Source of the DNA: Lentzea sp. NPDC051838
GTDB taxonomy: Bacteria; Actinomycetota; Actinomycetes; Mycobacteriales; Pseudonocardiaceae
Direction: 5' to 3'
Length of the DNA: 32,000 bases
Assembly (NCBI RefSeq): GCF_040681245.1
Contig: NZ_JBFAYI010000006.1
Span: 19,198-51,197, forward strand
This document shows, piece by piece, positions 1,737 through 29,250 of the stretch (within the stretch, counting starts at the first letter, position 1; every line of letters begins with the position of its first letter). The notes under the pieces were generated by a model, which saw only the letters and a program-made list of their open reading frames with translations, was not told the DNA's origin and did no database searches. A program made the position numbers and the translations under genes.

Positions 1737-7205
<5,469 letters not shown>

Positions 7206-7387
7206 CGACTTGACTCCTCGCGGACGCACAAACCTCAGCGGCAGTCGCCGCTCAATCGATGTACACACTCTCGTCTACTACCCGGTAGGAAAACCGCTAG
7301 ATCGAAGCGAGTTGAGCAGCGTGCTTTGTATGAAACCAACAAGCAACCAGGTCCTCGGCACAGGATCACTTGAGCCCGTGGCCCAAC

Positions 7388-11973: not shown

Positions 11974-12249
11974 ATGTGGCTCACCATCGCGACCCCGCCC
12001 ACCCAGTCCCTGGACAAGCTCGACCAGATGATGGGCGCACTCGTCCCGGACGGCCTGCGCGCCCGCTACGCCTGCCAGGCCGACGGCAAGTTCCAGATCA
12101 TCGCCGTGTGGGAGACGAAGGACCACGCCGACCGCTTCTTCCGCGAGACCCTCGGCCCCGTGCTGGCTCGTGTGCTGGGCCCGGAACCGGCCGGCGCCCC
12201 CGCGGTCACCGGCTACGAGGTGCTGCGGGAGTTCGTGCCCGTCAGTTGA
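11974..12249 (+). CDS. Small hypothetical protein (91 aa)
   Basis: ATG 11974 is preceded by GAGGAGGAAC at ideal spacing. Codon third positions are GC-rich. I recognise no motif with certainty. Confidence 0.55.
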   Translation: MWLTIATPPTQSLDKLDQMMGALVPDGLRARYACQADGKFQIIAVWETKDHADRFFRETLGPVLARVLGPEPAGAPAVTGYEVLREFVPVS

Positions 12250-12718
12250 GGACGGCGATCGACACGTTGAGGGCCGCCGCGAAGCTCACCCACGCCAGGT
12301 AGGGCGCGAGGAGCAGCGCGGCGGCCCTGCTGCGCCACCAGAACACGACCACCACCGCGACGATCGCGAGCCACAGCAGCACGATCTCGGCGAACGCGAC
12401 CCCGTACCAGCCGAGCCCGAAGAACAACGGCGTCCACGCCGCGTTCAGCACCAGCTGCACCCCGAACACGGTCAGCTCGGCCCGCGACGCGCCGTTCCGC
12501 CACGCCAGCCACCCGGACGCCGCGATCATCGCGTACAGCACCGTCCACACAAGACCGAACAGCCACGCGGGAGGTGCCCAGCCCGGACGGCGCAGCGCGA
12601 GGTACTCGTCGCCGGCCGAGATCGAGAACAGCGATCCGACCACGGCGGTCACGACGACAGCCACGATGAACACGAACAGCACCCGGACGGGGTGGTGCCG
12701 CAGCGGCAACGTCGTCAT
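12242..12718 (-). CDS. tspO: TspO/MBR tryptophan-rich sensory protein (tetrapyrrole-binding membrane protein)
   Basis: Start at ATG 12716-12718 (MTTLPLRHH...), 158 aa, five hydrophobic helices. It is Trp-rich with family-typical stretches: RPGWAPPAWLFGLVWTVLYAMIA, QLVLNAAWTPLFFG and LLLAPYLAWVSFAAALN. The Arg/Gly-rich N-terminal extension in the track ORF (to 12979) is rejected. Confidence 0.9.
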   Translation of the reverse strand: MTTLPLRHHPVRVLFVFIVAVVVTAVVGSLFSISAGDEYLALRRPGWAPPAWLFGLVWTVLYAMIAASGWLAWRNGASRAELTVFGVQLVLNAAWTPLFFGLGWYGVAFAEIVLLWLAIVAVVVVFWWRSRAAALLLAPYLAWVSFAAALNVSIAVLN

Positions 12719-13011
12719 GAGGAACTCCCGAATGGCAGAGCGCGGATGATGGCGAGCACCGTCGCGCGACTCGGGGCCGCGCGTTCGGCGTCGTCGAGCA
12801 GGGAGATCTCGTCCGCCAGCACTGCCTGACGGATCTGGTCGGCGACGCCGGGAAGCTCCCACCGCAACGCCTCGACCAGCCTGCCCCTCAAGGCACGCCC
12901 CGCCGGGTCGTCGGACGGCAGCACCTTCCAGTGCGCGCGCAGGACGCGCTCGGCCACCTCCTCGCCCCCGACCGCCCACAGCAGGCGGATCATCCGGTCG
13001 GCGAGGCCCAT
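12715..13011 (-). CDS. Hypothetical 98-aa protein, translationally coupled to tspO
   Basis: ATG 13009-13011 lies 10 nt downstream of the MerR-type gene's stop. Its own stop overlaps the tspO start (ATGA at 12715-12718). Composition is coding-like and no domain is recognised. Confidence 0.6.
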   Translation of the reverse strand: MGLADRMIRLLWAVGGEEVAERVLRAHWKVLPSDDPAGRALRGRLVEALRWELPGVADQIRQAVLADEISLLDDAERAAPSRATVLAIIRALPFGSSS

Positions 13012-13021
13012 GCCCCGAAGT

Positions 13022-13810
13022 CTAGATTCGATTCAAAATCGTTTCAACCGCAGCGGCGAGCGTGCCCACGCGCTGGACGTCTCCTGAAAGCGGCACGTCC
13101 TCCCAACCTGGGCCCGCCACCAGCACGTGAGTCCCGGCCAGCTCCGCCAACGGCACCTGATCCGCGTGCACCCGATCGTGTGCCCACACGAACACCACCT
13201 CCGGCGCCAGCCGCTTCACGGCACTGACCAGCGCGGTGGCAGGCACCCGAGCGCCGAGGTTCCGCGACGCTTGGCCCCGCTCGGCAAGGGCAGCAGCGAG
13301 CACGTCCAACGGCAGACTGTGCTGCTCCTCCGGCGCACACGCCAGCAGCACCGACGGCACCCCGGCCGCCGCCCCCGACACCCTCATCGCGTCGGAGATG
13401 CTGAGGCTCGCGACGTGCTCGACCTCGACCCCGGAGGCCGTCGCCGACACCCGTTCACCCAGCTCGACCAGGAACGGCATCAGCACCGCGTCCCACGTGT
13501 GCACGACGCCGTGGCGAGCGATCAGCCCCACGGCCACCCGGCGCATTCGTGCCGCGTCGAGCTCGTCGGCCGCAGCCCAGAAGTCGGGGTCACCGGACGA
13601 CGTCAGCGAGGCGGCGGCCGACGCGGGCGCGACACCCGACGCGGTGAGCTCGACCATGCGCTTGAGGCGCACGACGTCGTCATCGTTGTACCGCCGGTGC
13701 TTGCCCTCGTGGCGCGTGCTGGGCCCTAGGCCGTAGCGGCGGTCCCAGGTGCGCAGGGTTGTCGGCGAGATGCCGAGCATCCGCGCGACCGCTCCGGCAC
13801 TCCACTCCAC
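13022..13810 (-). CDS. MerR-family regulator with C-terminal B12-binding-like domain (LitR/CarH-like)
   Basis: GTG start at 13808-13810 with GGAGGTGA 3 nt upstream (GGAGG core 6 nt from the GTG). The N-terminal AGAVARMLGISPTTLRTWDRRYGLGPSTRHEGKHRRYNDDDVVRLKRM is a MerR HTH. The C-terminal half carries W-x9-E-L (TWDAVLMPFLVEL) and E-x-H-x-x-P (PEEQHSLP). These resemble the CarH/LitR W-x9-EH and E/DxHxxG cobalamin motifs but differ from them. Confidence 0.8.
   Translation of the reverse strand: MEWSAGAVARMLGISPTTLRTWDRRYGLGPSTRHEGKHRRYNDDDVVRLKRMVELTASGVAPASAAASLTSSGDPDFWAAADELDAARMRRVAVGLIARHGVVHTWDAVLMPFLVELGERVSATASGVEVEHVASLSISDAMRVSGAAAGVPSVLLACAPEEQHSLPLDVLAAALAERGQASRNLGARVPATALVSAVKRLAPEVVFVWAHDRVHADQVPLAELAGTHVLVAGPGWEDVPLSGDVQRVGTLAAAVETILNRI
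13028..13042. promoter_or_regulatory. AT-rich palindrome tCGATT-caa-AATCGt (operator/RNA hairpin candidate), copy A
   Basis: Read directly from the sequence. The 15-nt string CGATTCAAAATCGTT (13029-13043) recurs exactly as a reverse complement at 13827-13841. Copy A lies inside the last codons of the MerR-type gene, 17-31 nt upstream of the next ATG. Confidence 0.55.
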
Positions 13811-14816: not shown

Positions 14817-16347
14817 TCGAGTCCTTCCGTCGTCGTGTGAAGCCCAGCGCCAACGCCACAAGGCCCGCAGCGGTCAGCACCCACTCGGGCCAGGCTCCTA
14901 GCCAAGTCGCCAGCGTAGTCTGTGACCTGAGCGGCAGTGTCGCGACCAGGGCATCGGGCACGAACAGGCCAGTCTTTTGAGTGACGGAACCGTCGGGCTG
15001 GACGATCGCACTGACCCCTGAGGTGGCCGCCACGACCACCGCCCGGCCGTGCTCCACGGCACGTACCCGTGACATGGAAAGCTGCTGGTAGGTCATCTCC
15101 GTGTAGCCGAACGTGGCGTTGTTCGTCGGGATCGCGATGATCGTCGCGCCGGCCTTCACGGAGTCGCGGACGACTGAGTCGAACGCCACTTCGTAACATG
15201 TGTCAAGTGCGACCTTCGCGGGCCCCATGACGAAACCGTCCGGGTCCGAACCGGGCTGGAACACACCGGCACGGTCCACGGTGGACGAGAACAGCCGGAA
15301 GAACGAGCGCATCGGCATCGTCTCGCCGAACGGCTGCAGCTTCCGCTTGGTGTAGGTGTCGGTCGGCCCCTTCTCCGGGTCCCACAGCACCACCTGGTTG
15401 CGCGGCAGCCCGTCGCCGCGATCGACCACCACGGCACCCACCGCGATCGGCGCCTTGATCGCCTTCGCGGCCGCGTCGATCACCGCGGCGGCGTCGACGT
15501 TGCGGAACGGGTCGATGTCCGACGAGTTCTCCGGCCAGATCACGACGTCCGGCTGCTTCACCTTGCCCGCTGCCACATCGGCGGCGAGCTCCATGGTCTT
15601 TCGAGCGTGGTTGTCGAGCACCGCGCGACGCTGCGAGTTGAAGTCGAGCCCGGCGCGCGGCACGTTGCCCTGGATCGCCGCGACCGTCACCGTCCCGGCC
15701 GAGGCGTCCACCCCGACCGGCACCGCGAACCCCGCGAGCAACGGCACCACGACCAGCGGCGCCCCGAGCTTCCAGTTCTTGAGCACCCAGAACAGCCCGA
15801 ACCCGGTCAGCGCCACCGCGAACGACACCAGCGGCGCCCCGCCGAGCGACGCCAGCGGCAGGAACCACCCCTCCGGCTGCCCGAACGCGATCTTGCCCCA
15901 GGTGAAGCCACCGAACGGGAACACCCCGCGCAACGCCTCGTCCGCCACCCACAGGCACGCCGCCCACAACGGCCAGCCCGGCACGCGGGAGATCGCCGCC
16001 ATCGCCGTGGTGCCGATCGAGATCATCAGCGCGCACGCCAAAGCCAGCGGCAGCCACGCGATCAGACCGACGAACTCACCCGTCCACCGCAGCAGCGGCA
16101 CCATGAACCCGAGCCCGAACAGCACGCCGTACCCGAACCCGGCCCGTGCTCTGCGCTCGTAAATCGTCCAGGCCAGCAGCGCGAACCCGACCGGAGCCAG
16201 GAACCACAGCGGACGCGGCGGGAAGCTGAGGTAGATCAGCACACCGCCACCGACGGCGAGTGCCATGCGCAACAGCACCGGAGGGCTCAACCGGCGCCTG
16301 CGGACGGGCATTTCCGGCGATTCCGGCGCGATGGGGGGTGCGACCAC
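14800..16347 (-). CDS. lnt: Apolipoprotein N-acyltransferase
   Basis: 515-aa maximal ORF. The N-terminal half is polytopic membrane sequence. The C-terminal half is a CN-hydrolase domain (VVIWPENS..., ...CYEVAFD..., NNATFG). The start is uncertain: GTG 16345-16347 or ATG 16309-16311 ([11 protein letters not shown]...). Confidence 0.9.
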
Positions 16348-16359
16348 CCGATCAGCCTA

Positions 16360-17695
16360 CGAGGCCAGGGAGTACACAGGAGATATGGCCTCCGGCTTTC
16401 CCGTTGCACGCGGGATCCGACCCGCGAAGAGGGGACGGCCTGGACCCAATACGATCATCGTTGTGCGAGCCAGGTATCGCTATCGGATCGAGCCGACCGA
16501 CGCGCAGCGGGCCATGCTGGCACGCACGTTCGGGTGTGTCCGTGTCGTGTTCAACGACGCGATCCGGTACCGAGACGAAGCATTCCGAGCCGGCGAGAAG
16601 CCATCACCGACGGATGTGCAGCGGCGCGTGATCACCGAAGCGAAGAACAGCCACGACAGGTCCTGGCTGACCGAGGTCGCGTCGGTCGCGCTGGTGCAGT
16701 CCGTGCGGGACGCACACCGCGCTTACACGAACTTCTTCGACTCGATGAAGGGCAAGCGCCGGGGACGCAAGATCGGCAGGCCGAGATTCAAGTCCCGCAA
16801 GGCCACACGGCAGTCGTTCCGCCTCACGCGCAACGGCTTCAGCATCAGGCCCGACGGTCGGCTGTACATAGCCAAAGTGGGAGACATACGGGTTCGGTGG
16901 TCGCGCGATCTGCCCTCAGTCCCCAGCTCGGTGACGATCATTCGGGAACCAGATGGCCACTTCTACGCCAGCTTCGTGGTCGAGATCGAGCAAACCCCAC
17001 TGCCGCTGACAGAACAGGAAGCAGGTATCGACCTCGGCATTGCCGTTCTTGCGACCGTGGTGAATACCAACGCACAGCACACCGAAATCCCGAACCCAAG
17101 ACATATTTCAGGCAAACAACGCAAGCTGACCCGCCTGGAACGACAAAAAGCCCGCTGCGCCAAGGGCAGCGCCAACCGTGCGAAGTCCTGCCGCAGGATT
17201 GCGAGACAGCACGGCAGGGTGGCTCGTTGCAGGCGCGACCTTCACCACAAACTGGCCTTCCGCCTGATCCGCGAGAACCAAGCGGTCTACGTGGAAGATC
17301 TGAACATAGCGGGAATGCTGGGCAATCATCGGATGGCGCGAGCAATCTCGGACGCCGGGTGGGCGCAGTTCGTCCGATTGCTGGAAGAGAAAGCGGAGAA
17401 GTACGGCCGGACGGTGCACAAAGTGTCGCGATGGCGACCGAGTTCGAAGATGTGCTCCGGTTGTGGGCAAATCACGGACACGATGACGCTGCACGTCAGG
17501 ACATGGACCTGCCCCATGTGCAAGTCAAGGCATCACCGAGACCGCAACGCGGCTCAAAACATCCTCGCCGCCGGACGGGCGGAGAGGCGAAACGCCTGTG
17601 GAGCCTCGGTAAGTCCTCCCTTAAGGAAGGCGGTGGGCGATGAATCAGGAAGCACCCCGGGAGCGGTATGACCGCACGGGAAACCCTGGTCCTCG
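16360..17695 (+). mobile_element. IS200/IS605-family tnpB-only element (boundaries tentative)
   Basis: It contains only tnpB. GC is lower than the flanks (55-58 % in two lines I counted). The imperfect inverted repeat CGAGG-CCAGGG (16360-16370) / CCCTGGTCCTCG (17684-17695) brackets the gene. No Y1 transposase (tnpA) is present in the window. Confidence 0.4.
16385..17671 (+). CDS. tnpB: TnpB (OrfB) RNA-guided endonuclease-type transposase accessory protein
   Basis: ATG 16385 with ACAGGAGAT upstream.
- The N-terminal RARYRYRIEPTDAQ is typical of TnpB.
- RuvC triad candidates: GIDLGI (D), YVEDLN (E), HHRDRNAAQNI (D).
- Zinc finger: CSGCG...CPMC.
- The tail NACGASVSPPLRKAVGDESGSTPG resembles actinobacterial TnpB C-termini. 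Confidence 0.9.
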   Translation: MASGFPVARGIRPAKRGRPGPNTIIVVRARYRYRIEPTDAQRAMLARTFGCVRVVFNDAIRYRDEAFRAGEKPSPTDVQRRVITEAKNSHDRSWLTEVASVALVQSVRDAHRAYTNFFDSMKGKRRGRKIGRPRFKSRKATRQSFRLTRNGFSIRPDGRLYIAKVGDIRVRWSRDLPSVPSSVTIIREPDGHFYASFVVEIEQTPLPLTEQEAGIDLGIAVLATVVNTNAQHTEIPNPRHISGKQRKLTRLERQKARCAKGSANRAKSCRRIARQHGRVARCRRDLHHKLAFRLIRENQAVYVEDLNIAGMLGNHRMARAISDAGWAQFVRLLEEKAEKYGRTVHKVSRWRPSSKMCSGCGQITDTMTLHVRTWTCPMCKSRHHRDRNAAQNILAAGRAERRNACGASVSPPLRKAVGDESGSTPGAV

Positions 17696-21228: not shown

Positions 21229-21483
21229 GTGCCAGAAAAACTGACCGTCGACCTGCACCCGATCTACCGCAGCGACCGCGACATCGCCGCCGCGGTGCGC
21301 ACCGTGCTCTTCCGGGCCGCCGGGGAGAAGGTGCCGCTGGTGGAGATCATCGTGGGCAAGGGTTCGGGGAAGCTGCGGGGCCGGGTGCTCGCGATGCTGA
21401 AGCAGCCTCACGTGAAGAAGCTGTACCGGCGCGTCGAGGTGGCGCCGGGCAACGACGGAATGGTGCTCGTGCACCTGAAGTAG
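21229..21483 (+). CDS. Smr-domain protein (84 aa)
   Basis: LTVDLHP...VEIIVGKGSGKLRGRVLAMLKQ...V resembles the Smr pattern (LDLHG ... IIHGKGSG.L). GTG start. It lies 12 nt after the PspC gene. Confidence 0.65.
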   Translation: MPEKLTVDLHPIYRSDRDIAAAVRTVLFRAAGEKVPLVEIIVGKGSGKLRGRVLAMLKQPHVKKLYRRVEVAPGNDGMVLVHLK

Positions 21484-21484
21484 G

Positions 21485-21640
21485 TCAGGCGCCGACCAGC
21501 CGCAGGAACGCCTCCCACGCTGCCGGGCTCACCGGCACGTGGGCGGCGGGCGCTTTGGAGTCCCGGATACCGATGCCGCGACCGATCTCGACGCAGTCCG
21601 AGCTGGTAGCGCTGTAGCTGCTCTTCCGCCACTCCGCCAT
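21485..21640 (-). CDS. DUF397-domain protein (51 aa)
   Basis: My own translation is MAEWRKSSYSATSSDCVEIGRGIGIRDSKAPAAHVPVSPAAWEAFLRLVGA. The W-R-K-S-S-Y-S...C-V-E motif is diagnostic for DUF397. GGAGG lies 8 nt upstream of ATG 21638-21640, and the start is 13 nt after the XRE-type gene's stop. The track lists only a wrong-frame ORF here. Confidence 0.8.
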   Translation of the reverse strand: MAEWRKSSYSATSSDCVEIGRGIGIRDSKAPAAHVPVSPAAWEAFLRLVGA

Positions 21641-21653
21641 CCGAGTCGCCTCC

Positions 21654-22472
21654 TCAGGACACGATGCTGGTGATCAACTCCCTCGATTCTTCCTTACCGA
21701 GGGCGACGCGGTCCATCATCTTCAGCGCGTCCTGGTAGAGGCTGACCGATGCCTTGTCGTCGAGGAACAACGCCGAGTTCAGCCCGCCTTCGAAGACGAC
21801 CGGCTCGTACTTCTCGAACTTCAGCAGGGTGAAGTCACTGGTCAAAGCGCGACCCGCGGGAAGCACTCGCAAGGTGATGTACGGCCGCACCAACATGCGG
21901 AGCAGTTCGTGGAGTTGCGCCCTCAACACTGCGTCGCTACCCACCGGCGAGTGCAGCACCGGTTCGTACAGATAGAAAACGAACTTCTTGTGCCCCGCGA
22001 CGATTCCTCGGCGTTCGGTCCGAGCCGCGACCCATTCCCAGATGTTCTCGTCCTCGACGAACGGCGAGTCCTCGGCCAAGGCGCGCGCGTACGGCTCGAT
22101 CTGCAGCAGTCCGGAGATGAACAGCGAACTCCAGTGCACGATCTCCTTGGCGAGCCGTTCGTGCAGGATCAGCGTCCGGACGTGGGGCGGCAGCACTGAC
22201 TCGTAGACCTGCAGCCACCCCTTCTCCCGCGACTCCAGGAACAGACCCTTCAGATACTGGAACTCGTCCGGCTTGACGCCACACACTCCGAGCAGGAAGG
22301 CGAACTCTTCGAGCGACGTGCCACCCTTGCCGTTGACGAGATCCGACAACTTGGCGTGCTCCCAGCCGAGCCGCCGGGCGAGCTCAGCCTCCTTCATGCC
22401 GGTTCGTGCGATCATCTCGCGGAGGCGCTCACCGAACTCTCGTCCCAGCACTGTGGACACTCGCTTTGGCAT
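21654..22472 (-). CDS. XRE-family HTH regulator with DUF5753-type C-terminal domain
   Basis: The N-terminal LGREFGERLREMIARTGMKEAELARRLGWEHAKLSDLVNGK is an XRE/Cro-type HTH. The roughly 190-aa C-terminal domain and the downstream DUF397 partner match the common actinomycete HTH_31-DUF5753/DUF397 pair. Confidence 0.85.
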   Translation of the reverse strand: MPKRVSTVLGREFGERLREMIARTGMKEAELARRLGWEHAKLSDLVNGKGGTSLEEFAFLLGVCGVKPDEFQYLKGLFLESREKGWLQVYESVLPPHVRTLILHERLAKEIVHWSSLFISGLLQIEPYARALAEDSPFVEDENIWEWVAARTERRGIVAGHKKFVFYLYEPVLHSPVGSDAVLRAQLHELLRMLVRPYITLRVLPAGRALTSDFTLLKFEKYEPVVFEGGLNSALFLDDKASVSLYQDALKMMDRVALGKEESRELITSIVS

Positions 22473-22563: not shown

Positions 22564-23766
22564 TCAGCCGATCGTCACCACCCGAGCCCAGTCGGGTGGC
22601 AGGCGTGGGCGGTAGTCGGGGTCGTACTCGCGCACCCGACGCTCCCGCTCGAACAACCCCACCACCGTCCGACAGGCGGGTTTCGCGTCGGGCCACGGCG
22701 TGTGGCCGTCGGTCAGAGCGACGACCACATCGGGGCGTGTGCGCAGCGCACGAGTGAAGCCCTCGCGCAGATCCGTGCCACCACCACCGATCAACGGGAT
22801 CCCTTCCGCAGCACACAACGGCCCGGTGATGTGGGCGGCGGCATCGCAGGACATGACCGAGACGAGGTCACGCCGTCCACCCACCGCCCGGACGATCGCG
22901 GCGATCTCCAGAAGCGCGCTCCCGAGTTCGGTGTCGCTCACCGAACCGGACGTGTCGACGATTACGACGACCCGCGGCGGACGGCGGCGCAGGCTCGGGA
23001 GCACGACTCCGGGCACGCTGGCTGACCGGCGTGCGGGGCGGCCGTAGGTGTAGTCCTCCCCCACTCCGGGGCCGGACACCGCTGAACGCACGGCCGCGCC
23101 CAGCAGGTCGCGCCACGGCTGCGGCGGGTGGAACGCCTCCTCCGCCCACCGCTGCCAGCCGGCAGGAACTGAGCCCGGCGAAGCGTTGATGCCTTGTGCC
23201 ACGCGGAATCTGACGGCGTCGCGCTCCTGGACGCTGAGCCCGTGCGCGCCATCGGGTCCCAGGTCCCATGCCCGGTCCAGGCCGTCCGCGCCGCTGCCGC
23301 AGTCGAGCCACGCGAACGCGTTGGTCAGCCGCCCGAGCCGGAACTGGCGCAGGTAGTCCTCCATCAGCTCCCCCGGAGACAACCGCAACGTCTCCGGCTG
23401 GACCGCGCCCTCGGCGCATTCCAGGCCGTCGCCGAACACGTCGTCGTTGATCTCGCAGTCCGCGGCGATGTTCATCCGCAACCGCTCTCCCGGCCCGGCC
23501 AGTTCGTTAGCGATCGCGTATCGGTCGCCGCGCCCGTGGTGGTCGCGGAGCAGGTGCGAGACCTCGTGCACCCACACGCCGGCCAGCTCCTCCAACGGCG
23601 TCCGGGAGACGAACGCCGGTGAGACGTAGCAGCGCCAGTGACGGTCCACGGCCATCGTCGGCACCTGCCGCGACTCCACTACGTGCAGGGCGAACAAAGC
23701 CGTTGCCAGGTAAGGACGGCACCGGACCGCGTACAACCGCGCGGCGAACAGCTTCTCGGTGTCCAT
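22564..23766 (-). CDS. HExxH metallopeptidase-like N-domain fused to VWA-like domain (DUF2201_N + DUF2201 architecture)
   Basis: 400 aa. The N-terminal half has WVHEVSHLLRDHH (HExxH). The C-terminal half has VVVIVDTSGSVS (DxSxS MIDAS), GGGGTDL and ALTDGHTPWP. Its ATG (23764-23766) overlaps the upstream gene's TGA (TGATG). Confidence 0.85.
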   Translation of the reverse strand: MDTEKLFAARLYAVRCRPYLATALFALHVVESRQVPTMAVDRHWRCYVSPAFVSRTPLEELAGVWVHEVSHLLRDHHGRGDRYAIANELAGPGERLRMNIAADCEINDDVFGDGLECAEGAVQPETLRLSPGELMEDYLRQFRLGRLTNAFAWLDCGSGADGLDRAWDLGPDGAHGLSVQERDAVRFRVAQGINASPGSVPAGWQRWAEEAFHPPQPWRDLLGAAVRSAVSGPGVGEDYTYGRPARRSASVPGVVLPSLRRRPPRVVVIVDTSGSVSDTELGSALLEIAAIVRAVGGRRDLVSVMSCDAAAHITGPLCAAEGIPLIGGGGTDLREGFTRALRTRPDVVVALTDGHTPWPDAKPACRTVVGLFERERRVREYDPDYRPRLPPDWARVVTIG

Positions 23767-24935
23767 CAGCGCGCACCCACGAGGTCGGCTCGGGCCGACA
23801 ACGACACCGCCCCGGCCAGCTTCTCGATCTCCGCCGGAACCTGCCAGTCGTCCTGCCGCAGCGATGCCAACGTGGCCGCGGGCACGACCACCAGGTCAGG
23901 TGCCCCGGTTTCCAGTGCCAGCACCAAAAGCGCCCACGCCGCGTTCCAGCGGGACTCCTCCGGACGCTTGCGCACCGCCGCGACCACACCGTCGAGCACC
24001 ACCTGACGCAGATCGCCGCGCTCGGGCAGAACCGCAGACGCCGGATCTGCCAACAACGTCTCGGGGTCGGGCAGGTCCATCCGGTCCAGGCTCGCGAGGA
24101 GCTCCAGACCGGGGCCGTCCCCCACCGCGCCCCGCACCAGCGTCGACAGCACCTCGCGAGAAGTGCTTGCGGCGGTGGCGAAAGCGATCAGCCGCAACGC
24201 CATCTCCCAGCTGCGAGGCGATGGCCACGCTCCGCCACGGCGTGCTTCGTTCTTCGGGAGCTGATGCACGAGGTTCGGCCGCACCGCGAGAAGTTCGCAC
24301 ACGGCCCGCCGAGCGAAGGCGACCGACTCGGTCAGTCGCGAGGAATCCAGCTGTGGCAACGATGCCTGAGGCCACGTGCCACCCAGGCCTCGCACCACGA
24401 CGTCGTGGTCGTACGTCCACTGCAGATGGACGAACCTGTTGGCCAGCGGCGGACTCAGCTCCCAGCCGTCGGCGGCGGACGATCGCGGGTTCGCGGCGGC
24501 CACGATCCGGATGCCAGGAGGAAGCTTCAACGCGCCGACCCGGCGTTCGAGCACAACCCGCAACAACGCGGCCTGGACTGCAGGAGGGGCAGTGGACAAC
24601 TCGTCCAGGAACAGGAGCCCGTGGCCATCACGGACCAGCCGCACCGCCCAGTCCGGCGGCGCCATCGGCACGCCCTGAGTGGCGGGATCGTCGCCCACCA
24701 CGGGCAGGCCGGAGAAGTCGGACGGCTCGTGCACGCTGGCGATCACCGTCGTCAACGGGAGTCCGAGCTCGTCGGCGAGCTGGGTGAGGGCCGCGGTCTT
24801 GCCGATTCCCGGCTCGCCCCACAGCAGTACGGGCAGGTCGGCCGAGACCGCGAGCATCAACGCCTCCAGCTGGAGGTCGGTGCGTGGCTCGGTGGTCGTG
24901 TCGTTCAGGAGTGCGAGCAGAGCAGCAGCAGTCAT
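23766..24935 (-). CDS. MoxR-like AAA+ ATPase (AAA_5 type)
   Basis: I place the start at ATG 24933-24935 (MTAAALLALL...), which has GAAGGTGA upstream. The Arg/Pro-rich extension to 25175 in the track is rejected. Motifs: Walker A LLWGEPGIGKTA, Walker B GLLFLDELS, then RIVAAANP and PPLANRF. Confidence 0.85.
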   Translation of the reverse strand: MTAAALLALLNDTTTEPRTDLQLEALMLAVSADLPVLLWGEPGIGKTAALTQLADELGLPLTTVIASVHEPSDFSGLPVVGDDPATQGVPMAPPDWAVRLVRDGHGLLFLDELSTAPPAVQAALLRVVLERRVGALKLPPGIRIVAAANPRSSAADGWELSPPLANRFVHLQWTYDHDVVVRGLGGTWPQASLPQLDSSRLTESVAFARRAVCELLAVRPNLVHQLPKNEARRGGAWPSPRSWEMALRLIAFATAASTSREVLSTLVRGAVGDGPGLELLASLDRMDLPDPETLLADPASAVLPERGDLRQVVLDGVVAAVRKRPEESRWNAAWALLVLALETGAPDLVVVPAATLASLRQDDWQVPAEIEKLAGAVSLSARADLVGAR

Positions 24936-24949
24936 GATCACCTTCGAGG

Positions 24950-26062
24950 TCAGCAGAAAGCGGCGAGACCGGCGCGGTAGAGGCCGTGCAGCACCTTGCG
25001 GCGCGCGGCCGTCTCCAGTTCGTCGCGCAGTTCGCCGTCGCGCAGGAGCGCGTCGGGTCCGAGGAGGTCTTCGACCACGGCGAGAGCACCGGCGGTGTCG
25101 CCGTGGTCCAGGCGGGCGCGCACGTCCACGAGGCTGGCCGGATGCCGGTGTGCCGCGTCGATCGCTTGCAGGCACGGCACACCGTTGCCTCCCAACGCGA
25201 CCAGCAGCTCTTCGCGGCGGATCTCATCAGGCGAGTGGTCCAACGGCACGAGCACGCCGTCCACGACGCCGATGCGGTGCGTGGAGCCACGGCACTGGAC
25301 GAGACGTGAATCCCTTGGCGTGCCAGGACTTCGTGCCACAGCGGACGTGCCGAGAAGCGCGGACGCGACCAGCGGGTGCAACCGATCGGCGTCGATCAGC
25401 CCGGCGCGCAACAGTTCCACGTCGGGAGGCACCCAGATCGAGGCGTCGGGCAGCTGGAACGGCTTGCCCGGAGCGTCCGGGTTCAGCACGATTCGACGCC
25501 GGTGACCCAGCCGCACGACGACGGGTCTGTCCGCACCGCCCAGCAACGCGGCCTCGCCCTGCCACCGCTCGGGCGGGTCGCCGCACGACCGTTCTCGCAG
25601 CTCAGAGGCCCTACGTGCGTCCCAGAGGTGGCGGTGCTGGTCGAGGCGGAAACGCCGATCGGGCCGAGGCGAGTCCAGCAACGCGAGGCTGATCCGTTGG
25701 CCGGCGCTCGCCCACGCCGGCGGCGTCCGCGCGACCAGGTGCAGCTCGCCGTAACGAGCCAGGGAAACGGTGAGCCCCGGCCGCAGCAGACCGTCGGGAC
25801 TGATTCGAGGAAAGTGCCATCGCAGCAGGTCAGGAGCCAGGTGACGCAGATCAGCGCGGATGGTGGACGCGACGTGGCTGCCGTGAACACGGCTCACAGC
25901 ACGAAGGTTCAGATCCACGTCGACCCGCGCGGCAGCACAGGCAGCCGACCAGTCACCCGCAAGGCGGCGGGCGGTCGCGGACTCGATCATCGATGCCGGC
26001 ACGGCGAACTCGCGCACGTGCGACCAGAAAGCGAGGCGGGAGTCGTTCGCGGTCAAGTGCAT
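24950..26062 (-). CDS. Conserved-looking hypothetical protein (370 aa), first gene of the AAA/VWA operon
   Basis: ATG 26060-26062 has GGTGAG 5 nt upstream (GTG 26066-26068 is an alternative). The stop lies 14 nt before the AAA gene's start. No domain is recognised. There is a Cys/His cluster: VQCRGSTHRIGVVDGVLVPLDH...VPCLQAIDAAHRH. Confidence 0.7.
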   Translation of the reverse strand: MHLTANDSRLAFWSHVREFAVPASMIESATARRLAGDWSAACAAARVDVDLNLRAVSRVHGSHVASTIRADLRHLAPDLLRWHFPRISPDGLLRPGLTVSLARYGELHLVARTPPAWASAGQRISLALLDSPRPDRRFRLDQHRHLWDARRASELRERSCGDPPERWQGEAALLGGADRPVVVRLGHRRRIVLNPDAPGKPFQLPDASIWVPPDVELLRAGLIDADRLHPLVASALLGTSAVARSPGTPRDSRLVQCRGSTHRIGVVDGVLVPLDHSPDEIRREELLVALGGNGVPCLQAIDAAHRHPASLVDVRARLDHGDTAGALAVVEDLLGPDALLRDGELRDELETAARRKVLHGLYRAGLAAFC

Positions 26063-26148
26063 CAGCACTCACCTTGAGCGAACGAAACCCCCGATCTGTT
26101 CGAGGTGGTGATCATCGCCGCAACCGTAGCAGGGCGCGCAAGGGACTT

Positions 26149-26952
26149 TCACCGGTCCGAGTCCACCGGGATGCCCTCAAGCTCCTCCGTGACGCTCGTG
26201 AACGCCTCCGGCTGCACCCGCAACACCCCGCTGAACGGATGCGTCATGCCAAGGCACAACGCACACACGAACGCGAGCACCGCAGCGGTGACGGACATCT
26301 GCACGACGTGCCGCGCCCGAGCCGTGAACCCGATGAGCAACGGGAACACGATCATGCCGATGGCACCGACGATGGTGCCGATGAGCATGAACTTCCCGGT
26401 GTTGTCGAGCCCGCCGGCCTGGTCCAGCCGGTCACGCCGCAGGTCCGTGATCTCCCGGATCCGCTCCAGCACCCGCTCCCGCGCGCTCTTCACCTGGTCC
26501 GGAGTGGACGGCAGCGTCAGCACCTCGGTGTGCAGCGAGTTCAACGTCGACGTGGTGCTGTCGTCGGCCGAACCGTCGGCCAGCGCGGGCCATTCCTTGT
26601 CCGCCACCAGTTTCGGGTACTCGACCAGCAGCGAGCGGATGCGATCACGTTGCGGTTGCGGCATCACACCGGTCTGCCAGTACGCATCTGCGATGGCGGC
26701 GGCCTCACGGGCCGCGTTGTCCTCGGCAGCGCCGTTCTCCTCCCACACGATCACCATGTAGAACGCCAGCGCCACGATGAACAGGCCGGAGACCACCGCG
26801 CCCAGGAATCCGCGGGAGTCGGCGTCGCGGTCGTCTGCCTGTTCGTGTGCGCGGGAGCGGCCGAACAGGAGACAGGCGGCGATGGTCACGACCACCGACG
26901 CGACGACGATGACGAGCGCGGTCCACATGGCCTCCATCTCCCCACACCCCAC
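26149..26952 (-). CDS. DUF4239-like membrane protein
   Basis: There are two N-terminal and two C-terminal hydrophobic helices flanking a soluble helical middle (AAAIADAYWQT...RERVLERIREITDLRRDRL), which matches my memory of DUF4239 proteins. The start is ambiguous: GTG 26952, ATG 26937 or ATG 26928. Confidence 0.6.
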   Translation of the reverse strand: MGCGEMEAMWTALVIVVASVVVTIAACLLFGRSRAHEQADDRDADSRGFLGAVVSGLFIVALAFYMVIVWEENGAAEDNAAREAAAIADAYWQTGVMPQPQRDRIRSLLVEYPKLVADKEWPALADGSADDSTTSTLNSLHTEVLTLPSTPDQVKSARERVLERIREITDLRRDRLDQAGGLDNTGKFMLIGTIVGAIGMIVFPLLIGFTARARHVVQMSVTAAVLAFVCALCLGMTHPFSGVLRVQPEAFTSVTEELEGIPVDSDR

Positions 26953-27195
26953 CGCCGTTTGACCACCAACACCACGCTTCTCGGCGGTCTTCCCCGCCCA
27001 TCAAGAGCAATGCGGCGTTGATCAAGCACACAGCAAGTCCACATCGGATGACACACGCAGAAGCCGTTGACACGAATAGGAGAACCGAACCACGAGCGTC
27101 CTCGACGGAGAGTGAGCACGCCGTGATCAACCGCCGGTGACAACGACCGGAATGCGTGCCAACCTGTGCGCCGAAGCCGACCGGGAAGGCGTCGC

Positions 27196-29250
27196 ATGCG
27201 CGTACCGATCCTCATCGCCGTCGTCCTGCTGGTTCCGCTGCTCACCCCCGGCCCACCGGTGGCCGCCGCCGAGGTGTGGCACACCCAGTTCAACGACGCG
27301 GTGCGCGGAGACGTCGCGGTCGTCGGCAACAGCGTCGTCACCTGTCCGACGCCCGAACAGGCGGGGCCAAACCCCAAGTACCCACCGCAGTCCTGTGTGG
27401 ACGCGATGAACCGCAAGGGTCACGGCCCGTCCGCGCAGAACAACGGCCATCGCATGTCGTGGACCGACAACGACAACGACGCCAGAACGTTCAACTCGTC
27501 CAGCGCACAGCTCACTCTCCCATCCGGGGCGAGCATCGCCTACGCCAAGCTCGGCTGGGCGGGCACCGCGACCTGCCACGGCTCCACGGAACTGCCACCG
27601 GGCAGCCCACGCGACCCGGTCCTGCTCAACGGCACGAGCATTACCCCAGGCCAGTTCGTCATCGACTCCCCCGACGACCTCGCGAACACCGACAACGCCT
27701 TCTACAGCGCCGAAGCCGACGTCACGAAAACGATCAGGCCCGGCACTGTCACGGTCGGCAACGTCTGGACGCCCCAAGGGTTCGACTGCTTCGGCGGCTG
27801 GTCCCTGACCGTCGTGTGGAAGTCCGAAACAGCAGCACAGCGCCACATCTCGGTGCACGGCGGGCACATCCGCCTCCCCACCAAACGCCCGGTCCTGAGC
27901 ACCCCGATCGCCCCGACGCACGCAGCGGGCGGCGCGACCCGCCTGAGCTTCACGGCCTACGAGGGCGACTGGGCCACCGACGGCGACCAGCTGCTGGTCA
28001 ACGACTCCTCGGTCGCGGGCCGCAACGCATTCCTCTCGCAGGCCCAAGGCGCTCCCGCCCTCAACAACATGAGCGTCGACGCCCGCACGGTCACCCTGAC
28101 CGAAGACCTGCCCAAACCGGGCACGAAGAGCGCCGACCTGACGTTCCGCAGAGCCGAGGACGCCTTCCTCGTCCAAAGTGTCGCGTGGTCGTTCCCACTG
28201 CCCGAACTGGCGCTCAACGTCACGCCGGAACAACCAGCCGCTCATCCCAAGGACAACGTCACGCAAACCGCGACCGTCACCAACACCGGCGACGCTCCCG
28301 CGGCGGACGTGACGGTGTGCGGGCAGAAAATCGGCACAATTGCCCCACACGCCAAATCCACCCGCACGTGCACGTCGCAAGCTCAAGAAGACGACTACCA
28401 GACCACTGTCACCGCAAACGGCAGCAGCCTCGCCGGCGACCCGCTAACCGCGCAGAAGTCGGCAAAGGTCGACGTACTGCATCCGGCATTGCGCGCAACC
28501 ACGACAACCGAACCAATGACCGCATTGCCGGGACAGATGGTCAAATTCTCAACAACTGTCACGAACACCGGCGACACCCCGTTGTTCGACCTCAACGCGC
28601 GCACGGCCACCAACGGCTGCAACCCCATGCAAGGTCAGCTCGACCCCGGCGCCACCACCACCGTCGACTGCACGGCGAAAGCAGGCGATGAGACGGGCAC
28701 GCTCACGTCCACCGTCAGCGCCACCGACAAGATCGGCAAGAAGGTCGACGCCAGCGCATCGGTGCAGGTCAGGGTGATCTACCCGAGGCTGACGATCACC
28801 GCGCTGTGGTCGAAGGACAGGGCAGAGGACGGCGAGCTCGTCACGGTCACGGTGACCGTCGGCAACCCGTCGGACTTCCCGATCAAGGACGTGAAAGTCG
28901 AAGGCGAGCCCGCCGCGTGCCACCGCACGTTCCCGGAACTGCAGCCGAACCAACGCCTCACCTACACCTGCCAGGTCGCCGCGCCGGTTAATTCTCGGTT
29001 GACGGTGTCGGGCGCCGGAGCGGGTGCGGCCATCAGTGAAAGTGCCGTCGTGCGGATCGAATCGCTAAACGCGCCACTGCCTCCCGAGCCGCGACAGCCA
29101 CAGCCGCAACCTGACGAACCGGCACCTCCACGGCCGGTCGCGCACGTTCAGCAGCTGTCGAAACCGGCCGTCGGTGGTGTGGCCGCGGTAATCGGCGTGA
29201 TCGGCATGGTGATCGTCGCGAGCGCGTTTTCCGGCCTGGGAAAGCGGTAA
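27196..29250 (+). CDS. Secreted, C-terminally membrane-anchored surface protein with three Ig-like (DUF11/CARDB-type) repeats
   Basis: ATG 27196 with GGGAAGG upstream.
- Signal peptide: MRVPILIAVVLLVPLLTPGPPVAAA.
- A roughly 330-aa N-terminal domain (GDVAVVGNSVVTCP...TFNSSSAQLTLPSGASIAYAKLGWAG).
- Three roughly 95-aa repeats containing TVTNTGD-type strands.
- A Pro-rich spacer, then the TM helix VGGVAAVIGVIGMVIVASAF and a GKR tail. Confidence 0.8.
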   Translation: MRVPILIAVVLLVPLLTPGPPVAAAEVWHTQFNDAVRGDVAVVGNSVVTCPTPEQAGPNPKYPPQSCVDAMNRKGHGPSAQNNGHRMSWTDNDNDARTFNSSSAQLTLPSGASIAYAKLGWAGTATCHGSTELPPGSPRDPVLLNGTSITPGQFVIDSPDDLANTDNAFYSAEADVTKTIRPGTVTVGNVWTPQGFDCFGGWSLTVVWKSETAAQRHISVHGGHIRLPTKRPVLSTPIAPTHAAGGATRLSFTAYEGDWATDGDQLLVNDSSVAGRNAFLSQAQGAPALNNMSVDARTVTLTEDLPKPGTKSADLTFRRAEDAFLVQSVAWSFPLPELALNVTPEQPAAHPKDNVTQTATVTNTGDAPAADVTVCGQKIGTIAPHAKSTRTCTSQAQEDDYQTTVTANGSSLAGDPLTAQKSAKVDVLHPALRATTTTEPMTALPGQMVKFSTTVTNTGDTPLFDLNARTATNGCNPMQGQLDPGATTTVDCTAKAGDETGTLTSTVSATDKIGKKVDASASVQVRVIYPRLTITALWSKDRAEDGELVTVTVTVGNPSDFPIKDVKVEGEPAACHRTFPELQPNQRLTYTCQVAAPVNSRLTVSGAGAGAAISESAVVRIESLNAPLPPEPRQPQPQPDEPAPPRPVAHVQQLSKPAVGGVAAVIGVIGMVIVASAFSGLGKR

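Follow-up and report, generated by a model that had tools for sequence, protein, structure and literature searches.

Pairs of a MoxR-type ATPase and a VWA-domain protein rank with the most widespread of the poorly understood AAA+ systems, and we know of none with a built-in peptidase that has been studied experimentally. The maturation couples NorQ-NorD, CbbQ-CbbO, CoxD-CoxE and RavA-ViaA, as well as Midasin, join an AAA_5/MoxR motor to a client-binding VWA partner that bears a MIDAS site. MoxR-vWA ternary systems, described as the VMAP, iSTAND, FtsH, beta-propeller, iSTAND2 and TERNS3 types, carry effectors C-terminal to the vWA domain, attached through vWA-L (Kaur et al. 2020, PMC7159879; 2021, PMC8195603). 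Finally, jumbo phages of group 2.2 encode a pair made of MoxR and a metallopeptidase-vWA protein (Iyer et al. 2021, PMC7824862).

It is useful to compare these systems with a three-gene cassette (genes A, B and C) found in a 32,000-nucleotide stretch of the Lentzea sp. NPDC051838 genome, hereafter the window. As in ternary systems, the three parts form an operon in which a family-specific 5′ component is followed by a MoxR ATPase and then a vWA protein. Both kinds of system are common in filamentous actinomycetes, and in both the third component evolves more rapidly than the core and bears modules for recognition or of repeat type. However, protein C carries its zincin at the N-terminus and lacks a vWA-L/effector array at the other end, and the catalytic module of the triad is constant rather than swapped. 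Protein A probably belongs to another family; it has no Pfam match and shows no AAA/STAND, FtsH or propeller features. Protein B scores 16.9 bits with the bpMoxR model, under its cut-off of 27. The first-pass annotation had pointed to comparative-genomics work on vWA-MoxR ternary modules; an architecture with a zincin at the N-terminus and nothing C-terminal is not among the published types. It is a new version of the MoxR-vWA ternary theme.

Direct reading of the sequence bore out the three co-directional minus-strand genes and both of their proposed junctions (Table 1), although the GC content of the operon, put at 75 %, was computed as 69-71 %. With thousands of homologues and dN/dS values of 0.06-0.33, A, B and C are genuine genes and not chance reading frames. 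In the loci of relatives, the start and stop codons of A, B and C likewise overlap or lie close together.

Table 1. Features of the cassette and its surroundings, in window coordinates
Feature	Position	Strand	Description
Motif upstream of gene A	26075-26068		AAGGTGAG, upstream of the gene A ATG
Gene A	24950..26062	minus	370 aa; actinomycete-only family, no Pfam model; start ATG at 26062 agrees with homologue N-termini (MH.LT); stop TGA 24952-24950
Cys/His cluster of A	25172..25294	minus	Codons of C257-x4-H262-x13-H276-x20-C297 plus E280, R283, E284; family-invariant columns in diverse alignments
A-B junction	24936..24949	minus	14 nt after the gene A stop, read directly: CCTCGAAGGTGATC, including the Shine-Dalgarno GAAGGTGATC for gene B
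Gene B	23766..24935	minus	389 aa; MoxR-like AAA+ ATPase, AAA_5 type; ATG at 24935
Walker A of B	24795-24818	minus	GEPGIGKT, read in translation
Walker B of B	24594-24617	minus	LLFLDELS, read in translation
B-C overlap	23768-23764	minus	TGATG: gene B TGA 23768-23766, gene C ATG 23766-23764
Gene C	22564..23766	minus	400 aa; fusion of DUF2201_N zincin-like peptidase and DUF2201 VWA-like domain
HExxH of C	23536-23568	minus	HEVSHLLRDHH, read in translation
MIDAS of C	22942-22956	minus	DTSGS (in VVIVDTSGS), read in translation
DUF397 gene	21485-21640

Gene B encodes a MoxR-class AAA+ ATPase whose VWA/MIDAS partner is encoded next to it. It matches Pfam AAA_5 at 35 bits (cut-off 22; E = 1.7e-8), and its GEPGIGKT motif and the acidic pair D111 and E112 are invariant across six diverse homologues. 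The closest solved structures are the AAA modules of Midasin (1e-15) and NorQ (3e-6). Identity of B across actinomycete orders is 78-88 %, with dN/dS of 0.06-0.17. Protein C is predicted to be a metallopeptidase-VWA-like protein, with the peptidase N-terminal (DUF2201_N, residues 4-259, 88.2 bits against a cut-off of 23, E = 9e-25) and the VWA domain C-terminal (DUF2201, residues 266-373, 54.7 bits against 26, E = 1.4e-14). It ends about 25 residues past the VWA-like domain, and the zincin, its sole other domain, is constant in all homologues. Among 53 homologues, residues H67, E68, H71, D271, S273, S275, T331 and D353 are invariant. C was modelled poorly (pLDDT 57.8), and in this weak model its N-terminal part resembles the minigluzincin selecase (4qhi; probability 1.0, TM 0.53). 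The motifs and domains proposed earlier for both proteins thus held up: Walker A and Walker B are intact, T331 and D353 complete the MIDAS that accompanies HExxH, and the predicted AAA_5, DUF2201_N and DUF2201 matches all exceed their cut-offs.

The B-C core, an AAA_5-type ATPase plus a DUF2201_N-DUF2201 protein, is shared with the pair of jumbo and N4-like (Schitoviridae) phages. The homology was detected with tblastn and with phage families: B matches phrog_1297, annotated as an ATPase (3e-50), and C matches phrog_1314 (1e-36), with C homologues in N4-like, PA5oct-like and Thermus phages. These matches, and the MoxR and metallopeptidase-vWA pair on record in jumbo phages (PMC7824862), could suggest that the locus is a prophage remnant of this phage pair, which has been proposed to aid virion assembly; the first-pass annotation had missed the phage homologues. 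We regard a prophage remnant as highly improbable. The phage homologues are only 21-29 % identical, the two genes may lie apart in phages, and the N4-like gene adjoins replication genes. By comparison, the cellular triad has no phage context: phage genes are absent from its flanks in the Lentzea sp. NPDC051838 window and in related loci, and its synteny is stable across orders. Moreover, A has no homologue in 50,697 phage records or in 2.9 million viral contigs.

In soil actinomycetes the operon is tightly conserved: all 80 genome loci compared, from five or more actinomycete orders, have the order A-B-C, as do all the other loci inspected. The 370-aa gene thus passed a test set in advance, its synteny with the AAA/VWA pair. 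No flanking gene is conserved across the 80 loci, where the commonest neighbour cluster occurs in at most 8, and the neighbours in the loci inspected are ordinary metabolic and regulatory genes rather than defence islands. The XRE/DUF397 pair, pointed out earlier as lying immediately downstream on the same strand, accompanies none of the 80 loci and is thus unlinked. Among antibiotic-producing actinomycetes, at least 562 representative species genomes carry the cassette; it also occurs on Streptomyces linear plasmids, and it lies within the terminal 10 % in three of four complete Streptomyces chromosomes. Its distribution is autonomous and accessory.

These observations bear on whether B and C act as a maturation chaperone of the NorQ-NorD, CbbQ-CbbO, CoxD-CoxE or RavA-ViaA type, with A as an assembly factor, that inserts metal into, or activates, a specific enzyme encoded elsewhere. 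As far as is known, all MoxR-VWA pairs with established biochemistry have such a role, B is detectably similar to NorQ, and A carries a candidate metal-binding Cys/His cluster. However, the known couples are encoded beside their client enzymes, whereas a linked client gene appears in none of the 80 loci. The VWA partners of these couples and of Midasin have no peptidase, and an invariant HExxH domain has no role in metal insertion; an A-like subunit is also absent from them. Patchy, plasmid-borne distribution fits poorly with a core metabolic role, and a chaperone function appears improbable. As first proposed, the three genes form an uncharacterised module, and none of the HMM matches points to a characterised pathway.

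The product of gene A is 100 % identical to a Lentzea sp. NPDC051838 entry named "hypothetical protein" and belongs to a family of 425 representatives at 50 % identity. Consistent with the initial failure to name a motif in it, A matches nothing in Pfam, NCBIfam, PADLOC, PHROGs or PDB sequences; at E <= 1, 86 family members match nothing in Pfam except ankyrin repeats, with Ank families matching 43 of them. The protein consists of a conserved core of about 300 aa and a degenerate, ankyrin-like helical end. Its AlphaFold2 model (pLDDT 89.3, pTM 0.83) has no Foldseek neighbours in PDB or BFVD, and A is predicted, from a confident model, to have a new fold. In the model, strands 253-257, 260-267 and 270-273 and helix 278-289 place the Cys/His cluster on a three-strand sheet plus a helix. 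The spacings read from the sequence are C-x4-H-x13-H and C-x7-H-x-H, correcting the C-x4-H-x15-H and C-x8-H-x-H given in the first-pass annotation. Of these Cys and His residues, C257, H262, H276 and C297 alone are invariant family-wide, and H-x-H is not. The cluster is a candidate metal site.

Diverged paralogues of A end in C-terminal ankyrin repeats (A-ANK), in operons that read LRR protein, A-ANK, AAA_5, DUF2201; a separate LRR_6 protein gene precedes A-ANK in all five distinct long-type loci. In Actinoplanes italicus, four tandem A-ANK genes accompany one B-C pair. Identities are 53-77 % (A), 78-88 % (B) and 71-87 % (C) for the short type, and 32-43 %, 59-61 % and 45-50 %, respectively, for the LRR/ANK type. 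A, B and C co-diverge into these subtypes, both of which can reside within a single genome, such as that of Plantactinospora soyae or Micromonospora citrea. Purifying selection acts on each of the three; conservation is unusually high for B and C (dN/dS about 0.1), and A evolves fastest, with a dN/dS 2-4 times that of B.

We tentatively favor a reading in which the three proteins make up a single ATP-driven machine, a metalloprotease or remodeller bridged by the VWA domain, and A serves as the subunit for specificity or regulation. This possibility is suggested by the strict, translationally coupled linkage of the three genes, the close or overlapping codons and the absence of any other conserved neighbor; by the domain identities, invariant motifs and subtype co-divergence; and by the fact that the nearest relatives of B, Midasin and NorQ, both have a MIDAS/VWA partner. 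B would form a MoxR-type AAA+ ring onto which the VWA domain docks C, as NorD docks on NorQ and the MIDAS domain on the Midasin ring. The MIDAS site of C may capture an acidic group of the client, and ATP hydrolysis by B would then pull or remodel the client, leading to cleavage by the zincin of C, held in cis. A would be the dedicated third subunit, its core (residues 1 to ~300, with the Cys/His cluster) binding the B-C pair and its variable C-terminal end picking the target or sensing a signal. That end would be the ankyrin repeats in long forms, which also have the LRR partner, and the basic RPRHATxR tail in short forms. Such a role for A is suggested because the core is constant, the ankyrin end is variable, tandem paralogues and an LRR partner exist, and A has a higher dN/dS than B. 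A physical complex, proteolysis, the role of A and the biological purpose are all points that we infer. The machine may act as the ATP-gated protease switch suggested in the first-pass annotation.

The whole would amount to an AAA+ metalloprotease analogue in split form, bridged by the VWA domain. In FtsH, too, an HExxH zincin goes together with an AAA+ motor, a parallel that suggests ATP-coupled proteolysis by functional analogy only. FtsH is one polypeptide, anchored in the membrane, whose AAA module is of the classical clade and whose peptidase is M41, whereas in the triad the motor is of the MoxR clade, the peptidase is a minimal zincin of the DUF2201_N type and the presumed bridge is a VWA domain. 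To our knowledge, however, the MoxR ATPases characterised to date remodel clients or insert metal and do not feed proteases, which argues against the protease form of this reading.

Alternatively, the operon could be an immune system against phages or other invaders, of the MoxR-vWA ternary kind, in which A (ANK) and the LRR protein sense invader proteins while B-C sets a threshold and releases a destructive protease. MoxR-vWA conflict systems are a published precedent. The autonomy of the cassette amid variable flanks, its plasmid carriage and its position near the ends of Streptomyces chromosomes, the co-occurrence of short and LRR/ANK subtypes in one genome, the tandem expansion of A-ANK and repeat-type sensors resembling those of eukaryotic immunity are all consistent with this reading. 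Nevertheless, conflict systems swap their effectors and here the zincin "effector" is constant, B and C are conserved to an unusual degree, and the surroundings are not defence islands. PADLOC-DB 2.0.0 has no model that matches A, C or the LRR partner, and gives weak generic AAA matches only for B. On balance, an immune function seems unlikely. Similarly doubtful is the broader proposal that the triad and its four-gene LRR/ankyrin sibling represent an undescribed class of actinomycete innate immunity or surveillance. Here, proteins that are foreign or damaged would be recognised by eukaryote-like repeat proteins whose core has a novel fold, and recognition would license a MoxR-gated, MIDAS-coupled zinc protease. 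Its two-gene core would be common to N4-like and jumbo phages, perhaps through exchange with them.

The cassette may be relevant in several ways. Its small size, autonomy and extreme conservation make it a tractable model. First, it could reveal the function of the DUF2201 zincin-VWA fusion and the way in which a catalytic domain is coupled to a MoxR ring by a VWA domain. Second, it could reveal what the B-C-like pair does in N4-like and jumbo phages. Finally, the existence of A in ankyrin and LRR-partnered versions offers a natural handle for finding targets.

A different part for A is suggested by its invariant polar residues (D37, C42, H83, D148, D214, H229, C257, H262, H276, E280, E284 and C297). 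Because they exceed the needs of a pure docking domain, A might have an enzymatic or effector function of its own. It would then be the substrate of the pair, a novel-fold enzyme or toxin kept inactive until it is remodelled or cleaved by B-C, perhaps with loss of its basic tail; sensing in the four-gene form would fall to the LRR protein. About a dozen invariant Cys, His, Asp and Glu residues in the core, a high-confidence fold with no known neighbours and the LRR_6 gene before A-ANK agree with such a pro-effector. However, a catalytic family for A was recognised in none of the libraries searched, and an ankyrin end and tandem paralogues suit target recognition better. We consider it somewhat unlikely that A is the substrate or a pro-effector.

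The tail provides evidence on both sides of this question. In most relatives, A has a basic C-terminal tail ending in ...RPRHATxR, whose motif is fixed in position relative to the C-terminus (64 of 80 have R at -10 and 61 of 80 have R at -6), as expected of a recognition or cleavage element. The Lentzea sp. NPDC051838 protein has no tail, a truncation that the first-pass annotation missed, and its 370 aa are atypical of a family whose members measure 405-470 aa; yet it is still under purifying selection (dN/dS 0.24-0.27), which counts against a pro-effector activated through the tail. Since the conserved tail is absent from this copy, either it is dispensable or the Lentzea sp. NPDC051838 A is impaired. 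In relatives, AAGGTGATC likewise lies 5′ of gene B, but after an extra ~90-140 nt that encode the A tail.

Three minus-strand genes of the window, here called A, B and C, lie head to tail and form a genuine, widespread and uncharacterised operon. The families to which its B–C core belongs are known, though unstudied, and that of A is the new part. B contains Walker A and Walker B motifs, and C combines an HExxH motif with a complete MIDAS (D271-x-S273-x-S275, T331, D353); all of these are invariant among homologues. The Pfam matches to AAA_5 in B and to DUF2201_N and DUF2201 in C exceed the curated cut-offs in three of three cases. A and B are separated by a 14-nt gap with GAAGGTGATC, and the stop codon of B overlaps the start codon of C in TGATG. 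Database entries of Lentzea sp. NPDC051838 are 100 % identical to A ("hypothetical protein") and to C ("VWA-like domain-containing protein"). The first-pass annotation had described this three-gene module, and its description stands with small corrections, because the open reading frames, junctions, Pfam domains, invariant motifs and a match-less A are all present. Its figure of 75 % for the GC content of the operon becomes 69–71 % when measured. A promoter scan returned zero matches and terminator matches occurred at chance level, both scans being uninformative.

Features of the window, followed by the comparison loci that carry related operons or gene pairs
Feature	Position	Strand	Description
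1843-aa protein	1737-7268	-	single polypeptide: biotin carboxylase, biotinyl domain, ACC central region, carboxyltransferase
TspO/MBR and MerR genes	12242-13810	-	TspO/MBR protein adjoining a MerR regulator with B12-binding domain (CarH/LitR-like)
TnpB/IS605 OrfB-type gene	16265-17671	+	OrfB_IS605, Cas12f1-like TNB and HTH_OrfB domains; marks a mobile element some 5 kb away from the operon
Smr-domain protein	21229-21483	+	small, stand-alone, 84 aa; convergent with the DUF397 gene
DUF397 protein	21485-21640	-	BldB-like, 51 aa; pairs with the XRE/DUF5753 gene
XRE/DUF5753 regulator	21654-22472	-	Sco1979/WhiJ-like; adjoins the operon
Gene C	22564-23766	-	400 aa; DUF2201_N (putative metallopeptidase) then DUF2201 (VWA-like) by Pfam
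Gene B	23766-24935	-	389 aa; AAA_5 by Pfam
A–B junction	24936-25000		only the conserved AAGGTGATC ribosome-binding site left between A and B
Gene A	24950-26062	-	370 aa
Terminator-like hairpin	26089-26105		between the bestrophin-like gene and A; such matches at chance level in the scanned region
Bestrophin-like membrane protein	26149-26952	-	directly upstream of A
Secreted protein	27166-29250	+	694 aa; CARDB, DUF11 and DUF7507 repeats, C-terminal membrane anchor
Sibling operon, locus L081	8910-19391		LRR_6 protein (about 378 aa), A-ANK, AAA_5, DUF2201_N-DUF2201
Sibling operon, locus L083	8871-14020		same gene order
Sibling operon, loci L086, L087, L088			same gene order
Rhodococcus erythropolis pREL1 (L084)	162170-167251		diverged AAA + DUF2201 pair

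The three genes travel together. When one genome per species was scanned, a relative of A was found to be encoded in at least 562 species genomes, and A is followed by B and then C on the same strand in all 80 retrieved loci, which span Pseudonocardiales, Micromonosporales, Streptomycetales, Streptosporangiales and Nocardia. When all ORFs in the flanks were clustered, no conserved neighbour emerged beyond the triad itself, the best cluster being common to 8 of the 80 loci. Across orders, B is 78–88 % identical, C 71–83 % and A 53–70 %, and dN/dS in eight close genome pairs is 0.06–0.17 for B, 0.11–0.22 for C and 0.24–0.33 for A. The three are functional genes, with A changing fastest. The triad also occurs on Streptomyces linear plasmids and lies inside the terminal 10 % of three of four complete Streptomyces chromosomes, and ordinary accessory genes surround it in the inspected loci. 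Thus, given its variable flanks, plasmid carriage, chromosome-end location and accessory neighbours, the triad behaves as an autonomous accessory cassette. The adjoining XRE/DUF397 pair, to which the first-pass annotation had drawn attention, occurs in none of the 80 loci, and a linkage to the triad is rejected on that count; it is an unrelated WhiJ/BldB-like pair of a kind common in actinomycetes. It is very unlikely that the module serves as a chaperone for inserting a cofactor into a client encoded at another locus.

The A family comprises 425 representatives at 50 % identity, and its named members are all from actinomycetes. The window's protein has zero matches in Pfam, NCBIfam, PADLOC and PHROGs, and zero among PDB sequences by phmmer and profile search. 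Its AlphaFold2 model, built from an 86-sequence alignment (pLDDT 89.3, pTM 0.83), is confident: it is helical at its N-terminal part and again at its end, and has small sheets and an element of three strands plus a helix. Used as a Foldseek query, it had no hit with E below 0.8 in PDB or BFVD. The family of A is new, its fold is apparently new as well, and it has ankyrin and LRR-partnered variants. Residues invariant in diverse members include C42, W82-H83, D148, D214 and H229, as well as a C257-x4-H262-x13-H276-x20-C297 cluster together with E280, R283 and E284. The spacings of the cluster replace the Cys/His spacings originally proposed, and we regard it as a candidate metal site. Among 86 members scanned with Pfam, Ank models match 43 and no other family matches. 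The ankyrin-bearing long forms (A-ANK) are diverged paralogues of 500–650 aa, only 32–43 % identical, in which genuine ankyrin repeats replace the short helical end; the window A segment ...LDHGDTAGALAVVEDLLGPDALLRDG aligns with their first repeat.

All inspected long-form genes sit in a four-gene sibling operon with 4-nt overlaps, seen in Allocatelliglobosispora, Streptomyces, Actinomadura, Fodinicola and Actinoplanes. In Actinoplanes italicus, one B–C pair is common to four tandem A-ANK paralogues. Sibling-type B and C have also diverged from those of the window (59–61 % and 45–50 % identical, respectively), and thus the three components co-diverge. Both types coexist in some genomes, such as those of Plantactinospora soyae and Micromonospora citrea. 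A more distant B–C pair (about 40 % identity) occurs without A on Rhodococcus and Mycobacterium plasmids; on pREL1, two unknown proteins come after it, along with an SF1-helicase-like ATPase weakly similar to Mokosh MkoC, and a MazF toxin gene is nearby. In hhalign comparisons, the A profile showed no relation to the LRR partner or to the proteins on either side of the pair on the Rhodococcus plasmid.

The window's copy of A is itself unusual. Its length of 370 aa, as first annotated, was confirmed but is atypically short compared with its homologues. Short-type A, the form found in triads like this one, usually ends in a basic tail of 17–46 residues (about 35 % R/K/H), the final ten being R-[SRA]-[RH]-P-R-H-A-T-x-R; R occurs at −10 in 64 of 80 sequences, R at −6 in 61 and PRH in 45. 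Window A ends ...YRAGLAAFC, without the tail that most short-type homologues keep. A 12-residue GGHPHP insert is likewise missing, and window B is shorter by some 18 variable residues at its N-terminus. In DNA alignment, the conserved AAGGTGATC ribosome-binding site is kept, with sequence missing to either side. Pseudogenisation of the truncated gene is rejected, as its dN/dS against other Lentzea copies (0.24–0.27) shows no sign of decay.

How might these proteins work together? The nearest solved relatives of B are Midasin AAA modules (1e-15) and NorQ (3e-6), which both operate together with a MIDAS/VWA element. An AlphaFold2 model of C from a shallow alignment is poor (pLDDT 57.8), and the selecase-like match of its N-terminal part is to be taken with caution. 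The best model overall, which we hold tentatively, is VWA-bridged, ATP-driven client cleavage by B and C, with A giving specificity or control. We infer that the proteins form a complex in which B would assemble as a MoxR ring, the VWA domain of C would dock on that ring and its MIDAS site would capture a client. ATP hydrolysis could then deliver this client to the zincin domain that C holds in cis, which would cleave it. The conserved core of A would bind the B–C pair, while its variable end, either ankyrin repeats plus the LRR partner or the basic tail, might supply the specificity or control. Alternatively, A could be the substrate or a latent effector, which we regard as rather unlikely.

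B and C have phage counterparts. In PHROGs, B matches phrog_1297 (3e-50) and C matches phrog_1314 (1e-36), and tblastn finds C homologues of 21–29 % identity in N4-like, PA5oct-like, cyanobacterial and Thermus phages. This "MoxR plus metallopeptidase-vWA" pair has been noted in group 2.2 jumbo phages, with a proposed role in virion assembly and processing (Iyer et al., PMC7824862). The "HNH endonuclease" label of phrog_1314 is wrong, and phage C homologues are widely mis-annotated as "HNH/homing endonuclease". This label may exist because a homing-endonuclease gene adjoins the C homologue in PA5oct-like phages, lying between it and the ATPase gene (Pseudomonas phage PAC2, L092). In the N4-like Vibrio phage 1.097.O (L091), the C homologue is in the replication region, near the DNA polymerase. 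Phage records and IMG/VR contain no A homologue; a prophage origin of the triad is rejected, and its being a prophage remnant is exceedingly improbable.

The triad is best placed within the MoxR-vWA ternary theme, as a variant of it. The known ternary conflict systems (PMC7159879, PMC8195603) are described with third components that appear to differ from A, and with effectors C-terminal to the vWA domain; none of them is described with the architecture of the triad. B scores below the cut-off of the bpMoxR model, and PADLOC provides models neither for A and C nor for the LRR protein. Immunity may be the biological role and is compatible with either mechanistic reading, A as a controller of cleavage or as its substrate or effector, although we consider it unlikely. 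Literature searches on DUF2201, PF09967, PF13203, COG3864 and ankyrin/AAA_5/VWA/metallopeptidase combinations found no study of the triad or of DUF2201 function. The triad is clearly worth experiments, and nothing found contradicts current expectations for MoxR-VWA systems.

Elsewhere in the window, the 1843-aa protein is a eukaryote-like single-chain acyl-CoA carboxylase, and the TspO/MBR and MerR genes are possibly a light-responsive pair.
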